IMG/VR virus record: IMGVR_UViG_2684623059_000002 | Length of the DNA stretch: 45,162 nt | DNA from: a virus | Taxonomy: Duplodnaviria; Heunggongvirae; Uroviricota; Caudoviricetes | Strand: one strand, 5' to 3' | Shown here: positions 59 to 6,783 of the stretch, one piece after another | How the letters are laid out: every line of letters begins with the position of its first letter | How positions within the stretch are numbered: the first letter of the stretch is position 1 | Position numbers and translations under genes: made by a program | Notes under the pieces: model-generated | Databases searched by the model: none | What the model was told of the DNA's origin: nothing | The model's input: the letters and a program-made list of their open reading frames with translations, nothing else

Positions 59-2530
59 TTAAAAATCAGCCTGACTCGGGATCAGTTTTTGCCAGATAGC
101 TGAAACGTATTTTGCCTGGTAACGAGCGTCATCAAGTGCATTATGGCGCTCACCTTCGAATGGGATAGCAGTTCTGGCATCGAAGTCTATGGCTTTCCCC
201 AGCTCAACGATTGTGCGTATATCGCGATCGTTGTAGTAACGCCACGGGCAGGGGATCCCCTGCCGTTCGTATGAACGGCGCAAAATCGTGTTGTCGAAGT
301 TTGCTCCATTTCCCCAGACCTGAACAAAAAATTCACCGGAGTTTTCGTCGATAAATTCCCGCAATTGTAACAGTGCATCATCTAACGGGATTTCATCGGT
401 CATAATGGCAGATTGCGCTTCGCGTGATTGCTTAAGCCACCATTTAATGGTGTCCCGATCAATGACTCCGCCAGCAGTTTCCAGATCGACAGTCTTACTA
501 AATTCCGGTCCCATATCTCCGGTTTGCGGATCGAAAAATATTGCACCTATTGAGATAATCGGGGCATCAGGATTTTTTCCCATGGTTTCAAGGTCGATCA
601 TCAGATGAATCCCCGCTCTGCTGGTGGATGTGAGATTATGGTGACCGTTCACCTTAATTAAGGGATCTGACGCCTCGCCAGTTTCACTATCGCTGGCATG
701 ATGCTGATTGCCGCCAGAGTTCTCCTTGTGCTGATGCGCAGTGCCTTCCATTTCCTCCGGATCATTTTCCTGAACTTCAGGCTGATTCTCTTCATCGAAT
801 ATTTCCTGGTATGTTGCGTCGCCCATCACCGCACCACAATCAGGGCAGCTACCGCCGCCGGTCTGACCGCAGGCGGTGCAGGCTTTTTCCGGCTCCTGTT
901 GCGCTACTGGTTCAACCTGTTTCGTTTCTGGCTCGTTTTGTTGCGCATTTGGGCTGTTTTGTTCCGTTTTCTGGTCGTTCTGTTCCGATTCTTGCTGGTT
1001 CTGGTTTACAGAGTCGCGGGTTTCAATCCCCTTCACCCATTTCGGATCATTCGGGTCGCTAATCCCTGCAACAAATTCTCCGCGAGAGGCAGCAAGCAAC
1101 TTATCGGCGTCAGGCTGGCTGATATTGGCTGCCTGCATAATTTTGTTTACTTCTTCAGCGGTAACTTTTACCGGCTCTGGTTGTGCGGTCGTGTCAGATG
1201 CACCAGTATTTTGTTGTGAACCTGAGTATGTACCGTTTTTGCGGGCAAAATATTCTTCTTTCGTGATTTCAGTAGCCCCTGCAGTCAGCGCCTTATTCAG
1301 ACCAGAAAGTTTGTTTGCGCGACCATATTTTTCGCCATCCTTGTCGGTGAAGAGGAAGTAGAACGGCCCTTCACGCTCTACAGATGGTTCGACTTCCACT
1401 TTGCATTCGGTTTTTTCGTTGTCCGGAATTGCCGTTTCCACTGCATCAGTTTCTGGTACTGGCGACGAGAGAGTATCAGTTGCGCTCTGATTTGTTCCTT
1501 CATCTTCAAACACGCCCTTTGTAGTCAGGTATTCAGTAATGTATTTGTTCAGTGCCACAGGGGCTTTGTGAATGTCGATCGGACGTTCACGGACAAGGCC
1601 AAAAATAGTCTGGCGGTCGTAGCGAAGGGCATCAGGCTGTTTGCGCATTGATGCCGAGATACGCTTCCAGTCTTCGCGGTCGTTGTCGATAACTTCATTT
1701 TTTGCCCAGCGATGGATGCTGCCGTCAATGTTTCCGGCATCAATGTCACCAGGCCACAGAGCGTAGGCCAGTTCATCATCCAGTGTTTTCCATGTCTGCT
1801 TGTATTCGCGACGAATGGTGGCAGTGGCTGGGGGGGGGTTCGCTACTGAGTTTTCAGTGTTCTGCCGGTTGACTCTGGCGCGGGCAAGATCAACAACAGA
1901 CGTGTATTTCCCGGTTTCTTTGCGTTCGGCTTCGCGACGTTTTTTCCAGGTGCGTAATTCTGTCTGGATCTCAGGCCATTTTGCACCCGGCTTACATTTA
2001 TGTTTAACCCACCCGATGGCGAGCAGCTTAAGCTCTGAATACATGACGTTAACTTCAGGCATTTTCATCAATGCCTCAACGATATGCCCGTCGAATGTTG
2101 CCATGTCCTCCTGCAGTAATTCCTGAGCACTAATCACCATATCAACGGTGATGTTTTCACATGTACCGAACTTAACCAGGACCGCGTTCTGTACTTCAAG
2201 GGACAGCTTGTCAAAATTGACGTTCATCGGATCGGATTCTGGTTCGACCGGAATAAAGGAAGCGGATTCCTCATCCCAGCGGTTTTCCTGCATATATTCG
2301 GTATCCCAGGAGTCGATAGCAGGGCGGGGCATGCCGGGTTTATCCTCGCAGACAAGAAATTTATAAGCGCAGTCCTGAGCAGCCGGATATTGCTCCAGGA
2401 ATTGCCAGGTAAATTTGGCACGGGCGCGGCGTTCGTCACCGGCTTCAATGGCAGTGGCTACAGCAATTGCACCTTCTTCCTTTATTGCCTGTTCGTCCGG
2501 AATGGCGGCGCAAATAAAGACTTTACTCAT
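59..2530 (-). CDS. Prophage exonuclease-family protein (823 aa) with C-terminal DnaQ-like DEDDh 3'-5' exonuclease domain, central Cys cluster and Q/E-rich low-complexity linker
   Basis: C-terminal motifs MIDLETMG ... GNGANFD ... HNALDDARY match the DEDD exonuclease fold; CTACGQTGGGSCPDCG resembles a zinc ribbon; long intact ORF. Confidence 0.8.
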   Translation of the reverse strand: MSKVFICAAIPDEQAIKEEGAIAVATAIEAGDERRARAKFTWQFLEQYPAAQDCAYKFLVCEDKPGMPRPAIDSWDTEYMQENRWDEESASFIPVEPESDPMNVNFDKLSLEVQNAVLVKFGTCENITVDMVISAQELLQEDMATFDGHIVEALMKMPEVNVMYSELKLLAIGWVKHKCKPGAKWPEIQTELRTWKKRREAERKETGKYTSVVDLARARVNRQNTENSVANPPPATATIRREYKQTWKTLDDELAYALWPGDIDAGNIDGSIHRWAKNEVIDNDREDWKRISASMRKQPDALRYDRQTIFGLVRERPIDIHKAPVALNKYITEYLTTKGVFEDEGTNQSATDTLSSPVPETDAVETAIPDNEKTECKVEVEPSVEREGPFYFLFTDKDGEKYGRANKLSGLNKALTAGATEITKEEYFARKNGTYSGSQQNTGASDTTAQPEPVKVTAEEVNKIMQAANISQPDADKLLAASRGEFVAGISDPNDPKWVKGIETRDSVNQNQQESEQNDQKTEQNSPNAQQNEPETKQVEPVAQQEPEKACTACGQTGGGSCPDCGAVMGDATYQEIFDEENQPEVQENDPEEMEGTAHQHKENSGGNQHHASDSETGEASDPLIKVNGHHNLTSTSRAGIHLMIDLETMGKNPDAPIISIGAIFFDPQTGDMGPEFSKTVDLETAGGVIDRDTIKWWLKQSREAQSAIMTDEIPLDDALLQLREFIDENSGEFFVQVWGNGANFDNTILRRSYERQGIPCPWRYYNDRDIRTIVELGKAIDFDARTAIPFEGERHNALDDARYQAKYVSAIWQKLIPSQADF

Positions 2531-2653: not shown

Positions 2654-2875
2654 TCACCATGACTCTGCTTTTACAGGTAAACCATCACGACCAAGGAAGA
2701 CTTTAATCATGGTTTCCTTAATACAGTGTTGTGTGGAAAAATCACGAATATAGAGCCGTTGTTTTTTAATGTTGTTTACCGAAGCAATATATGTTCTTCC
2801 TTTATGAATAACATAATCACCGGGAGTCACGCACTGACGAGGAATTTCATCAGTTCCGAAGTGATGAGCAATCAT
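2654..2875 (-). CDS. Small hypothetical protein immediately downstream of DicF, in the dicB position of the operon; does not match the K-12 DicB sequence as I recall it
   Basis: ORF with GGAG about 6 nt upstream of the second Met (MIAHHF...); synteny with the Qin dicB operon. Confidence 0.5.
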
Positions 2876-3049
2876 AATTATCTCCATTTTTACAAATGAA
2901 CTTTGTTGATGCGGTGCCTGGTGCCTCCAGGTGACGTTAACCAGTTAACAATTAACGCCGGATACAGAGAATCCACCCATAACACTGTTTTTGGTTTTAA
3001 CTGTTCCACGTGCGCTTAGCCGCATTCACCGCATCACAAAATTCACTTT

Positions 3050-3107
3050 AAAAAGGGCGGCAGAGCAGTCACGGAGTAAAACTGATACCGCCAAACGCCA
3101 CCAGAAA
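3050..3107 (-). ncRNA. dicF: DicF small regulatory RNA (ftsZ-targeting sRNA of Qin-like prophages)
   Basis: Minus-strand sequence UUUCUGGUGGCGUUUGGCGGUAUCAGUUUUACUCCGUGACUGCUCUGCCGCCCUUUUU is near-identical to recalled E. coli DicF, including the GC hairpin and U-tract; correct synteny downstream of dicA. Confidence 0.8.
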
Positions 3108-3443
3108 ATTGATAACAGAGGGCGTTGTAGCGGGGTTGTCACTTAAGCGTATGGTCAACCTGACAACCCGGTGTCCTCAACGGGGAAGGAATAACCCCGC
3201 CATACTTACCGCCGCGCCATTTCGCGGAGTGCCACAACCGGAAGCGCACGGTCGAATTAAATTTAACGACACCGTACAGAGAGACCAATTTCGCCGTGTG
3301 CTTTCGCGTTATGCCCTGGCTTTTCAGGGATATATCCTTTCAGTAAACTGTCAGTACCGGATTCTTATCCGTGTCCGGCGCACGACCACACGTGACAGCG
3401 TGTTGGTCTCCATTTTTAACCCAGAACCTCAATGGAGGATAAA

Positions 3444-3653
3444 ATGCCAAACAAAAAAAGAAATCCGCTTATTGAAAAACAGATTGAATGCCTTGTAAAT
3501 CAACTCAGGCAATCAGGGTTATTAAAAACTCATTCAGAGTTGAGGCTCACAGAATCAGCATTCGACGATAAATTAAATAATGTCCTTTATAATGGCATTA
3601 TTGATTTTAATCGTTCTGTTGGTCGCCGCGGCCCTGCTGGTGTTTCCTTATAA
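3444..3653 (+). CDS. Hypothetical 69-aa protein, antisense to the dicB-type operon, AT-rich
   Basis: ORF with strong GGAGG RBS 7 nt upstream of ATG at 3444; stop abuts the convergent 216-aa gene; no family recognised. Confidence 0.4.
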   Translation: MPNKKRNPLIEKQIECLVNQLRQSGLLKTHSELRLTESAFDDKLNNVLYNGIIDFNRSVGRRGPAGVSL

Positions 3654-4304
3654 TTACCAGTCAATCCAGAGCGGACCGTGTTCAGCGTAAATATAACTGT
3701 ACACATCCAGATTATATTTGTGGTCTGTTAAGAACAGGCCGCAAATACATGCCGAAGCTTCCAGGGCAGCGGCTCTGTTACTGAATAACCATGTAGCAAC
3801 ATTCCAGCGTTTTTCTGCATCCCAGTCTTTCTCAAGGCCTGATACCATGAAGAAACCGTTAGTGTTGCCATCAAATAATTCTGTTTCCAGATTTTTAAGC
3901 AATGCCTGATGGACTCTTGCCAGGTATTCCGCCGGAATTTTGCCACGAATTCTGATGAGATTGTCATAAACAAACATGTTCCCCGCATATGGCGATTTTT
4001 CTTTCTTGTTTTTTAAACCAGCATCATGAGCAAACTGATCAATTTCTTCTTCCGTTGGTTTCGTATTGATGTTTTGCGCTGTCGTTTCTGCAATTTTATT
4101 TGCCACACTCTCTGAGTCGTGTTTATTTATAGACGCACAGAAATACAATCCGGTAAACGCATCGCGCACATTACGAGCTATATTATCAGTGTCTTTTTTC
4201 GTTACCGATTCCAATGCAAGTTCGTTCAGACGATGACGAAGTGTATGTGCTGCAATCTCCTGGATTGAAGTAGGTAAATCTTTAAATTCCATCGTCAACC
4301 TCAT
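3654..4304 (-). CDS. Hypothetical 216-aa protein inserted in the repressor-linked operon (moron; function unknown)
   Basis: Intact ORF with start overlapping the upstream gene stop (coupling); AT-rich relative to flanks; no recognisable motifs. Confidence 0.6.
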   Translation of the reverse strand: MRLTMEFKDLPTSIQEIAAHTLRHRLNELALESVTKKDTDNIARNVRDAFTGLYFCASINKHDSESVANKIAETTAQNINTKPTEEEIDQFAHDAGLKNKKEKSPYAGNMFVYDNLIRIRGKIPAEYLARVHQALLKNLETELFDGNTNGFFMVSGLEKDWDAEKRWNVATWLFSNRAAALEASACICGLFLTDHKYNLDVYSYIYAEHGPLWIDW

Positions 4305-4456
4305 CAGTCAGAGTTTCTTGCTAACCAGCGATGCGCGCCAGCTTCGGTTTTAAACGTTTTACTTTTGGTATACGTCATCGCGGTGAACGTGCCGTCCTGG
4401 TTGGGAAACACGTCGTACACCAGAGATTCGTTGTTGCCAAGATCGATAGTATCCAT
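4304..4456 (-). CDS. Small protein (50 aa) downstream of the repressor, YdfA-like position
   Basis: ORF beginning MDTIDLGNNES with GAGG RBS; synteny with Qin ydfA; track ORF 4304..4534 probably over-extended. Confidence 0.45.
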   Translation of the reverse strand: MDTIDLGNNESLVYDVFPNQDGTFTAMTYTKSKTFKTEAGAHRWLARNSD

Positions 4457-4540
4457 GCTGACCTCATTTCCCCTTAACGCCGGGGTAGCGGAACTGTTTG
4501 CTGAGAACACCGTGCGGTGTCTTGATGTAAGCAATATTAG

Positions 4541-4590
4541 CCATGGCTAACAATTTGGTCAAGCATTTTTGTTTGTCATAGCTAACATTC
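4541..4590. promoter_or_regulatory. Repeated operator-like motifs (TGGCTAACAAT / TAGCTAACATT) downstream of the repressor gene
   Basis: ccatggctaacaattt (4541-4556) and tcatagctaacattc (4576-4590) repeat the motif also found in the dicA-dicC intergenic region. Confidence 0.4.
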
Positions 4591-4622: not shown

Positions 4623-5030
4623 TTATCTTTTGTTTGTTCGTTGACGGGCTTTTAATAACTCTTCAAAGAGTTTGTTGAAATTTTTTACTCGGGCGCGCAT
4701 CTCGGTGAGCTGAGCATCCTGTTCTGATTCAGGCAATGCATTAAAAAGCTCAAGGAGCTCATGTTCTTTGGGGGATAGAGCAACTGGCTCCTCAATAGGT
4801 GGTGATGGCTGCTTGTCTTCATCGCCAAATAGAATCCATGTTGGCGAGCACTGCAGTACTTTGCTGAGGGCAAAAAGATTCTTTCCTGTAGGTTCGCTAT
4901 CATCCCGTTCCCATTGTGAAACCGATACATGAGAAATTTTCAGGGCTTTAGCAAGAGACCTTTGGGTGTATTTGAGGTTTTTTCGGCGATATCTAATGCG
5001 TTCGCCAATGGTTAGATTTTTTGTATCCAT
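4623..5030 (-). CDS. dicA: DicA-like HTH-XRE prophage repressor (135 aa)
   Basis: Near-identical to recalled E. coli DicA (…GERIRYRRKNLK.TQRSLAKALKISHVSVSQWER…); divergent from the Cro-like gene. Confidence 0.9.
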   Translation of the reverse strand: MDTKNLTIGERIRYRRKNLKYTQRSLAKALKISHVSVSQWERDDSEPTGKNLFALSKVLQCSPTWILFGDEDKQPSPPIEEPVALSPKEHELLELFNALPESEQDAQLTEMRARVKNFNKLFEELLKARQRTNKR

Positions 5031-5113: not shown

Positions 5114-5344
5114 ATGCTTAAAACTGACGCACTTTTGTATTTCGGTTCAAAAACAAAACTTGCACAAGCTGCTGGTATTCGTTTGGCTTCGCTTTATAGC
5201 TGGAAAGGGGAGCTAGTACCTGAAGGTCGCGCGATGCGCCTGCAAGATGCATCCGGCGGGGAACTTCAGTACGACCCCAAAGTTTATGACGAATATCGTA
5301 AGGCAAAGCGGGCGGGGCGGTTGAACAATGAAAATCACCCCTGA
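5114..5344 (+). CDS. dicC: DicC-like Cro-type repressor (76 aa)
   Basis: Near-identical to recalled DicC (MLKTDALLYFGSKTKLAQAAGIRLASLYSWKG...). Confidence 0.9.
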   Translation: MLKTDALLYFGSKTKLAQAAGIRLASLYSWKGELVPEGRAMRLQDASGGELQYDPKVYDEYRKAKRAGRLNNENHP

Positions 5345-5849: not shown

Positions 5850-6783
5850 ACGCCCACTGGTTATTAACACGCAGCTGGCGATGAAAATTGGCCTGAATGA
5901 AGCCATTGTACTGCAGCAGCTGCATTACTGGTTGAGAGATACTAATTCCGGCATGGAATGTAACGGGGTTCGCTGGATTTATAACACAACAGAACAATGG
6001 CTGGAACAGTTCCCGTTCTGGTCAGAGTCAACGTTAAAACGCGCATTTGCAAGTCTGAAAACGCTGGGGCTTTTGCGTTGCGAAAAGCTCAACAAATCAA
6101 AGCGTGACATGACTAATTTTTACACGATTAATTACGAGAGTGAGCTTTTAGATGGTGGCAAAGTGAGCGAATCCATCAGGTCAAAATGCGCCGCTCCATC
6201 AGGTCAAAATGACACGATGGAAGAGGTCAAAATGGCACGCTCCATTGGTTCAAAACGACCCAATGTCATCGGGTCAAAATGGCCTGATGATCTTACAGAG
6301 AATACAACAGAGAATAAAAACACTTCTCGTCCGGAAGCTTCGCAACCGGACCCGCAGACGGCTGAACAGGATTTTTTAATCCGACACCCTGATGCGGTTG
6401 TGTTCAGTGCGAAAAAACGCCAGTGGGGAAGTCAGGAAGATTTGGCGTGCGCACAGTGGATCTGGGGACGAATCGTGAGTCTTTACGAGCAGGCGGCCAG
6501 CGATGATGGCGAGATCACGAGACCGAAAGAACCCAACTGGACAGCATGGGCCAATGACGTGCGCACAATGCGGATGCTGGATGGCAGAACTCACAGACAA
6601 ATTTGCGAAATGTTTGGGCGGGTACAGCGGGATCCATTCTGGGTAAAAAACATCATGAGTCCGTCAAAGCTCCGCGAAAAATGGGACGAACTGGTCATCC
6701 GCCTGGGGCGTTCATCTGTACAGCGTTGTGTGAATCATATTTCTGAACCGGACACCGAAATTCCGCCGGGGTTCAGGGGGTAA
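5830..6783 (+). CDS. Replication initiation protein (phage O-like / replisome organiser)
   Basis: ORF preceding the DnaC-like loader; N-terminal HTH-like region; start chosen at MSLLFAERP. Confidence 0.65.
   Translation: MSLLFAERPLVINTQLAMKIGLNEAIVLQQLHYWLRDTNSGMECNGVRWIYNTTEQWLEQFPFWSESTLKRAFASLKTLGLLRCEKLNKSKRDMTNFYTINYESELLDGGKVSESIRSKCAAPSGQNDTMEEVKMARSIGSKRPNVIGSKWPDDLTENTTENKNTSRPEASQPDPQTAEQDFLIRHPDAVVFSAKKRQWGSQEDLACAQWIWGRIVSLYEQAASDDGEITRPKEPNWTAWANDVRTMRMLDGRTHRQICEMFGRVQRDPFWVKNIMSPSKLREKWDELVIRLGRSSVQRCVNHISEPDTEIPPGFRG

Follow-up and report, generated by a model that had tools for sequence, protein, structure and literature searches.

We consider it very likely that the window, the whole 45,162-nt stretch of DNA analysed here, carries a functional-looking allele of the small RNA DicF that lies in an early-left dicB-type operon of a lambdoid prophage with T3SS effector genes and that acts as its counterpart does in the Qin prophage of Escherichia coli K-12. 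DicF is a textbook prophage sRNA, and as such this copy mainly confirms what is known. The locus also offers a clean natural case of module exchange at fixed junctions, in which DicF is paired with KilR rather than with DicB.

DicF and its terminator

A cmscan search of the 45-kb window against Rfam returned a single DicF (RF00039), at 3106..3055 on the minus strand, with a score of 76.4 bits against a gathering threshold of 48 (E = 3e-15). The match covers model positions 1-52 of 52 with no non-canonical hairpin pairs, and K-12 dicF scores 76.7 bits on the same model. In a direct comparison with the annotated 53-nt K-12 dicF (NC_000913 1649382-1649434), the window sequence at 3107..3055 (minus strand) is identical at 52 of 53 nucleotides. 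The sole mismatch, A10G, changes GTGACG to GTGGCG at window position 3098, within the 5′ seed; nucleotides 11-53, including the ftsZ-pairing 3′ part and the terminator, are the same as in K-12, and identity extends beyond DicF for 20 nt upstream and, downstream, through TTTTT and about 40 nt more. The RNA comprises a 5′ single-stranded seed (nt 1-15, with A10G) and a hairpin (nt 16-52) that includes the ftsZ-complementary loop and the 3′ arm. The TTTTT that follows at 3054..3050 (minus strand), the U-tract of a Rho-independent terminator and presumed Hfq-binding 3′ tail, equals that of K-12; the interval 3050-3107 is therefore exactly DicF plus its U-tail, as delimited in the preliminary description. 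That description had reported a near-exact minus-strand match including the terminator, which the model score, the K-12 alignment and the identical U-tail all bear out, and it had named divergence in the ftsZ-pairing 3′ region as the finding that would speak against it; that region is 100% identical to K-12. Judged from sequence, the match is far beyond chance, and all the sequence-level criteria tested place the element in the DicF family.

The terminator has the form of a hairpin, GGCGGUAUCAG...CUGCUCUGCCGCC, with UUUUU after it at 3054..3050, all as in K-12, and termination is predicted from this sequence. The hairpin is missing from our terminator scan because the scanner accepts only loops of 3-8 nt, so its omission is not evidence against a terminator; the assignment follows from the structure of the Rfam model and from the identical K-12 sequence.

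A mis-assigned match would most plausibly involve either a Rac-type KilS or the coding sequence of a 38-aa ORF (3026..3142) that overlaps the DicF site. KilS (b4833), a 98-nt sRNA derived from the kilR 5′ UTR of the K-12 Rac prophage, does lie ahead of kilR at the corresponding place in Rac, and its 3′ half (6411-6466 of Rac locus L003, minus strand) matches the DicF model weakly, at 39.1 bits (GA 48, E 1.5e-5). The window element, by contrast, scores at the K-12 level and differs from K-12 dicF at one nucleotide in 53, and the ORF, which starts with GTG, is backed by no family match and is left unannotated in every related record. Both identities were rejected; the possibility is effectively refuted and its remaining probability negligible.

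The known biology of DicF provides the basis for a mechanism. In K-12, the 53-nt DicF arises by Rho-independent termination and 5′ processing by RNase E, and a 72-nt form by RNase III (PMC9438474). Its 3′ region pairs with the ftsZ ribosome-binding site and its 5′ region with xylR and pykA (PMC5069750); the RNA depends on Hfq, and its activity in trans is experimentally established in K-12 (PMC5069750, PMC9438474). DicF copies of the same architecture in K-12 and EHEC are expressed and active (PMC5069750, PMC9438474 and reviews). The sequence determinants for termination, processing and ftsZ pairing are all identical to K-12 in the window. By analogy with Qin, termination at the hairpin and U-tract and an RNase E cut at AUCAAU|UUUCUGG would yield a 53-nt, Hfq-dependent sRNA. 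Its 3′ portion (about nt 24-53) would cover the ftsZ ribosome-binding site, blocking FtsZ synthesis and causing filamentation, and its 5′ seed would pair with metabolic targets such as xylR and pykA, A10G converting an A-U pair to G.U. From the same analogy we infer transcription, processing, Hfq dependence and target repression at the window locus.

The operon upstream of DicF

DicF lies on the minus strand, as does the rest of the operon, and holds a dicB-type position, with DicA, DicC, a PdicB-like promoter and ydfA all upstream. The immunity region contains a dicC-type Cro-like regulator of 76 aa (5114..5344, plus strand; NCBIfam NF007282, 157.6 bits against a cutoff of 130) and a dicA-type repressor of 135 aa (4623..5030, minus strand; NF007257, 235.7 bits against a cutoff of 101). 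A promoter scan placed a PdicB-like sigma-70 promoter, TTGACC-17 nt-TAATAT, at 4534..4562 on the minus strand by consensus match only. This site is overlapped by an operator-like repeat, TGTTAGCCATGGCTAAT (TGTTAGC..GCTAA), and the same promoter and repeats are kept in K-12 between dicA and ydfA. The first gene of the operon is a ydfA-like DUF1391 gene (4304..4459, minus strand; Pfam PF07151, 95 bits) that aligns with K-12 ydfA, and the stretch from dicC through dicA and the promoter to ydfA shows 93% DNA identity to K-12 Qin. As in Qin, the DicA-type repressor would keep the promoter (4562..4534) off, and the operon is expected to be tightly DicA-repressed in the lysogen. Derepression would then give rise to a leftward transcript running through ydfA, the 216-aa ORF and a leader of 280 nt.

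Between ydfA and the leader, the locus departs from Qin: in place of K-12 ydfB-ydfC it has a 216-aa ORF (3654..4304, minus strand; phrog_2151, 480.9 bits) and a reverse 69-aa ORF (3444..3653, plus strand; phrog_4274, 173.7 bits), both without known function and neither with a Pfam or NCBIfam match. The 69-aa ORF has a strong Shine-Dalgarno sequence, GGAGGA, at 3434-3439, and it is annotated as the hypothetical protein WP_001133037.1 in E. coli 377323_2f and O157:H7. An unknown moron had been proposed upstream of DicF, and this opposite-strand ORF is indeed an unknown gene in that place. Its status as a moron is plausible but unproven, since our scans gave it neither a convincing promoter nor a terminator of its own: the sole promoter-like site at the ORF (3416-3445) would start transcription after the ATG, and a scan for terminators with loops of 3-8 nt found no such site 3′ of it. 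The 69-aa and 216-aa ORFs converge with their stop codons directly abutting, and the same pair precedes DicF in O157:H7.

The conserved non-coding leader of about 280 nt (3108..3384, minus strand) corresponds in the Qin alignment to the K-12 ydfC-dicF intergenic region. It holds the AU-rich 5′ processing context ...UUAUCAAU|UUUCUGG, in which the 20 nt 5′ of DicF equal those of K-12, and a 523-nt region here folds with z = -3.4.

The upstream arrangement bears on whether DicF is made at all. The locus might be a silent relic, in which a DicF homologue is never produced in meaningful amounts and its conservation reflects recent horizontal spread only. Two routes would lead there: permanent DicA repression, or a block to transcription from the convergent 69-aa gene combined with the lack of a dedicated promoter. 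DicA is intact, and the operator-like repeats overlap the only promoter-like site; the promoter scan found no promoter-like site on the minus strand between 3440 and 3107; and a PdicB transcript must cross the convergent ORF at 3444-3653 antisense to reach DicF, so that read-through could suffer. Yet the boundaries of the DicF cassette are sharp and conserved in 126 loci among the matches listed while the flanks have been exchanged, the variants seen (A39G and A10G) all keep the canonical hairpin, and published work reports K-12 and EHEC copies built in the same way to be expressed and active. The prophage also looks complete, with O/P, Q, terminase, head and tail genes. We therefore regard a silent locus as unlikely and favour a DicF that is produced on derepression, as in Qin.

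KilR, the spacer and module exchange

The small gene downstream of DicF had been described as something other than dicB, and this proved correct: it is a full-length kilR, encoding a 73-aa Rac-type Kil, an FtsZ inhibitor (2654..2875, minus strand; NCBIfam NF008465, 140 bits against a cutoff of 92, positions 1-73 of 73). Further support comes from phrog_294 (113 bits) and from identity to K-12 Rac KilR at 59 of 73 residues (81%); PGAP calls the gene kil in strain 377323_2f, and PF27398 is listed for an identical gene. No DicB homologue was found downstream of DicF, and homology to Qin stops about 20 nt before the kilR ATG. In an E. coli genome that is 99.4% identical, PGAP annotates an incomplete DicB at the equivalent of window 2985..2902 (minus strand). 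We rejected this candidate: the stretch contains only dicF-dicB spacer, and its 28-aa translation has no NCBIfam match. Long-form DicB models spill onto the spacer because the K-12 spacer is in frame with the dicB ATG; on this sequence evidence, the annotation at 2902-2985 does not mark a remnant of dicB but is an artefact. After kilR, the leftward operon continues with a gene for an 823-aa exonuclease (59..2530, minus strand; Pfam PF16473, 224.9 bits) with a YdfE/RecE-like N-terminal part, an Rv2179c-like 3′-5′ exonuclease domain and a partial match to the NCBIfam exodeoxyribonuclease VIII. Compared with Qin, the window thus has kilR and the exonuclease in place of dicB-ydfD. Because KilR is a full-length FtsZ inhibitor, the RNA-plus-protein logic directed against FtsZ appears to be kept and only the protein partner swapped. 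Read-through of the DicF terminator would, by analogy, lead to kilR expression and to inhibition of FtsZ at the protein level. With the RNA and KilR both directed at FtsZ, the locus would therefore constitute a dicF-dicB-like module with a Rac-type protein partner.

DicF and kilR are separated by a conserved spacer of about 180 nt (2876..3049, minus strand), the 5′ UTR of the division-inhibitor gene, which a three-way alignment finds in common between Qin dicF-dicB, Rac kilS-kilR and the window. Rfam STnc100 (RF02076) matches 3053..2868 (minus strand) over its full length with 36.4 bits, below its GA of 47, and the corresponding stretches in Qin, Rac, O157:H7 and phage Evi have similar scores, also below threshold. 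An STnc100/PasD reading was dropped on account of these scores and of the placement of PasD near Q and lpxR rather than at this locus; a 2026 preprint on Pas sRNAs locates PasD near Q and lpxR and makes no mention of DicF, kilR or dicB. The spacer may instead be a conserved structured 5′ UTR.

This spacer raises a further possibility, that the DicF hairpin acts mainly in cis as an attenuator gating the toxic kilR and the exonuclease downstream, with regulation in trans secondary. DicF stands directly upstream of kilR, separated by the conserved structured spacer; slot and spacer are the same ahead of dicB as ahead of kilR; and in Rac the slot holds KilS, which derives from the kilR 5′ UTR and whose loop is without the ftsZ-complementary CUCCG. 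However, every nucleotide of the ftsZ-complementary loop of DicF is conserved, more than termination alone would call for, and the trans activity of DicF is experimentally established in K-12 (PMC5069750). A cis effect would also be compatible with a role in trans. That attenuation is the main function accordingly seems quite improbable, more so than a silent locus, and a DicF that acts in trans on ftsZ remains the preferred reading.

Comparison of the three systems locates the junction. The window resembles K-12 Qin (ydfABC-dicF-dicB-ydfD) in its DicA/DicC immunity region, PdicB promoter and ydfA, and in the terminator, U-tail, processing context, leader and most of the downstream spacer; near-identity to Qin runs from ~3384 to ~2897, and the flanks on both sides are unrelated to it. 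Rac KilS-kilR resembles the window in having an sRNA with a GGCGG...CCGCC terminator at an equal distance upstream of kilR. Here homology starts at the terminator 3′ arm and runs through the spacer into kilR: the two sequences are identical over about 60 nt past the terminator and again over the last ~25 nt and the ribosome-binding site ahead of the kilR ATG. Rac differs in the loop and 5′ part of KilS, which lack the CUCCG anti-SD motif by which DicF pairs with ftsZ, and in carrying ydaE-racC-recE after kilR, where the window has the exonuclease directly. Within the window spacer, the middle is Qin-like and the last ~25 nt with the ribosome-binding site are Rac-like. This three-way pattern therefore points to a Qin/Rac crossover within the common stretch TAATTGTTAACTGG...CCTGGAGGCACCAG, inside the spacer, and by these alignments the DicF-kilR locus arose by recombination inside the conserved spacer. 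Given the shared slot, the shared spacer and the 39.1-bit match of KilS to the DicF model, KilS and DicF look like diverged occupants of one slot, KilS being to all appearance a diverged relative of DicF; the KilS paper leaves DicF unmentioned.

Modular shuffling around a conserved sRNA had been suggested for this locus, and a wider sample of DicF loci supports it. The sample, which is not a census, comprises at least 120 viral contigs from IMG/VR that match DicF exactly; neighbouring genes were classed by tblastn. The ~480-bp DicF cassette (~3384..2897) has sharp breakpoints in common with 126 other DicF loci among the matches listed, the DicF homology block ending near window position 3380 in 83 of these 126 and near 2900 in 111. 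DicB-YdfD follows in 101 of the 112 loci with at least 700 nt downstream (matches listed plus references) and KilR in 10, a number that includes the window and the reference loci. Upstream, the listed loci have either YdfA-B-C or YdfA-orf216-orf69rev, and each of these modules is found with both of the downstream ones, DicB-YdfD and KilR, the latter with YdaE or without it. The genes flanking the cassette thus vary combinatorially while its breakpoints stay fixed, as expected for shuffled modules.

Among inducible or sequenced phages and prophages, the order DicF then kil recurs in phage Evi (LR597642.1), E. coli O157:H7 and strain 377323_2f, as well as in the 10 of 112 classified loci (matches listed). 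Phage Evi shares leader-DicF-spacer-kil with the window at 96.0% over 731 nt, has G10 and carries an exonuclease after kil; its upstream genes, which include a ydfC-like gene, and its immunity region differ. No other record in the phage collection has this cassette. EHEC O157:H7 likewise bears DicF on lambdoid prophages of an attaching-effacing pathogen, and at least one of its copies has DUF1391, a 212-aa ORF, the reverse 69-aa ORF, DicF and kil in the same order; that region is 92.4% identical, with a different immunity region and with ydaE-racC-recE downstream.

In complete E. coli genomes DicF is common (3954 of 5426, with up to 7 copies each), and prophage-borne, multi-copy DicF is well documented (PMC9438474). 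DicF followed by dicB, at a coverage of at least 80% of the query, occurs in 3838 E. coli genomes and the Rac-type KilS-kilR in about 1840. The leader-DicF-spacer-kilR cassette occurs in at most 134 of the 5426 (2.5%), including O157:H7 and O145, as counted with a query of 731 nt extending over the DicF-specific leader; a 454-nt query was rejected for this count, as Rac KilS-kilR covers 90% of it. Among phage records, the DicF block is present in 59 and DicF followed by kil in 1, phage Evi. DicF-kilR is a minority arrangement that is already in public genomes. When one genome per species was scanned for the exact pattern, DicF turned up in just two E. coli records; limited to exact matches and to single genomes, such a scan says little about the range of DicF. 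In the literature searched, we found no description of the DicF-KilR pairing, of a relationship between DicF and KilS or of the G10 allele.

The G10 allele and the prophage that carries it

The single difference from K-12 DicF is predicted to spare ftsZ pairing. The duplex of window DicF nt 24-53 with the K-12 ftsZ leader (-29 to +1 from the start codon) has a predicted energy of -27.9 kcal/mol with G10 as with A10, a value computed for the E. coli K-12 leader. For the 13-bp xylR duplex, conversion of the A-U pair to a G.U wobble shifts the predicted energy from -20.3 (A10) to -19.7 kcal/mol (G10). A larger effect is predicted on the fold of the mature RNA. In equilibrium folding with G10, nt 6-12 (GGUGGCG) pair with nt 46-52 of the terminator 3′ arm (P ~0.98), and this alternative fold, at -18.5 compared with -15.9 kcal/mol, displaces the canonical stem. 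Averaged over nt 4-14, the predicted probability of being unpaired is 0.91 with A10 but 0.37 with G10; the seed of the K-12 allele stays unpaired. In either predicted fold the last element before the U-tract is still a hairpin. If it forms, the G10 refold could mask the 5′ seed or change processing, and a G10 allele biased towards ftsZ is a testable idea at the level of prediction.

G10 is rare. Of 3963 E. coli records, only 30 have the exact 76-nt sequence with G10 as their best match; strain 377323_2f and phage Evi share this allele, as do a few contigs from IMG/VR. The O157:H7 copy of DicF that precedes kil has A10 together with G39. The variants seen all keep the canonical hairpin, A39G by forming a U.G wobble and A10G by lying outside it. 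As a natural single-nucleotide allele of the seed, A10G could help to separate ftsZ-directed from metabolic roles of DicF.

A broader reading of the locus is possible, though we hold it to be doubtful: the ~480-bp cassette would be a portable sRNA slot with its leader, put by lambdoid phages before whatever FtsZ-inhibitor gene they have, DicF and KilS would be diverged alleles of its occupant, and the G10 form would have a masked seed and be focused on ftsZ. Were this true, DicF and KilS would share the terminator base and the spacer and differ in their seeds, and G10, by masking the metabolic seed, would pair an ftsZ-focused DicF with KilR.

The first 8472 nt of the window are 100% identical to AP014857.1, which is listed in a paper as Escherichia albertii EC06-170, and the identity probably extends over the whole window. 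The exact 823-aa exonuclease protein was found by look-up in AP014857.1 and 8 other contigs, and six E. albertii-type contigs carry the identical DicF allele and layout. In a whole-window search, no complete E. coli genome or phage covered more than 72% of the first 25 kb. The window encodes lambdoid prophage functions, namely O- and DnaC-like (O/P) replication proteins, Q, terminase, a major head protein and tail proteins including J, and from this gene content it looks like a complete prophage of E. albertii with effectors, unlike Qin, which is a cryptic remnant. At its right end lie, all on the plus strand, genes for the T3SS effector NleG (40650-41240), a pentapeptide-repeat SopA/NleL-like HECT ligase (41290-43662) and NleC (Peptidase_M85; 43916-44908). 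DicF therefore rides on an effector-carrying prophage of an attaching-effacing pathogen, and the window documents it on such a complete-looking prophage in E. albertii. In EHEC O157:H7, according to reviews, four prophage copies of DicF activate pchA/LEE and repress stx2A, and DicF is reported to feed into T3SS control.

The prophage has further features of note. A sok antitoxin RNA at 9744-9917 (plus strand; RF01794, 99.9 bits) indicates a hok/sok-type toxin-antitoxin locus inside it. Just after the Q antiterminator gene (12399-13094) stand four tRNA genes (13305-13614, plus strand), for Met(cat), Lys(ttt), Thr(tgt) and Gly(tcc), of which tRNA-Lys(ttt) scores just 38.9 bits in Rfam. These are followed at 13938-15854 (plus strand) by a gene for a 638-aa protein with DUF1737, SASA (sialate O-acetylesterase, NanS-p-like) and DUF6645 domains, which, in coming after Q and the tRNAs, sits where Stx phages carry their toxin genes.
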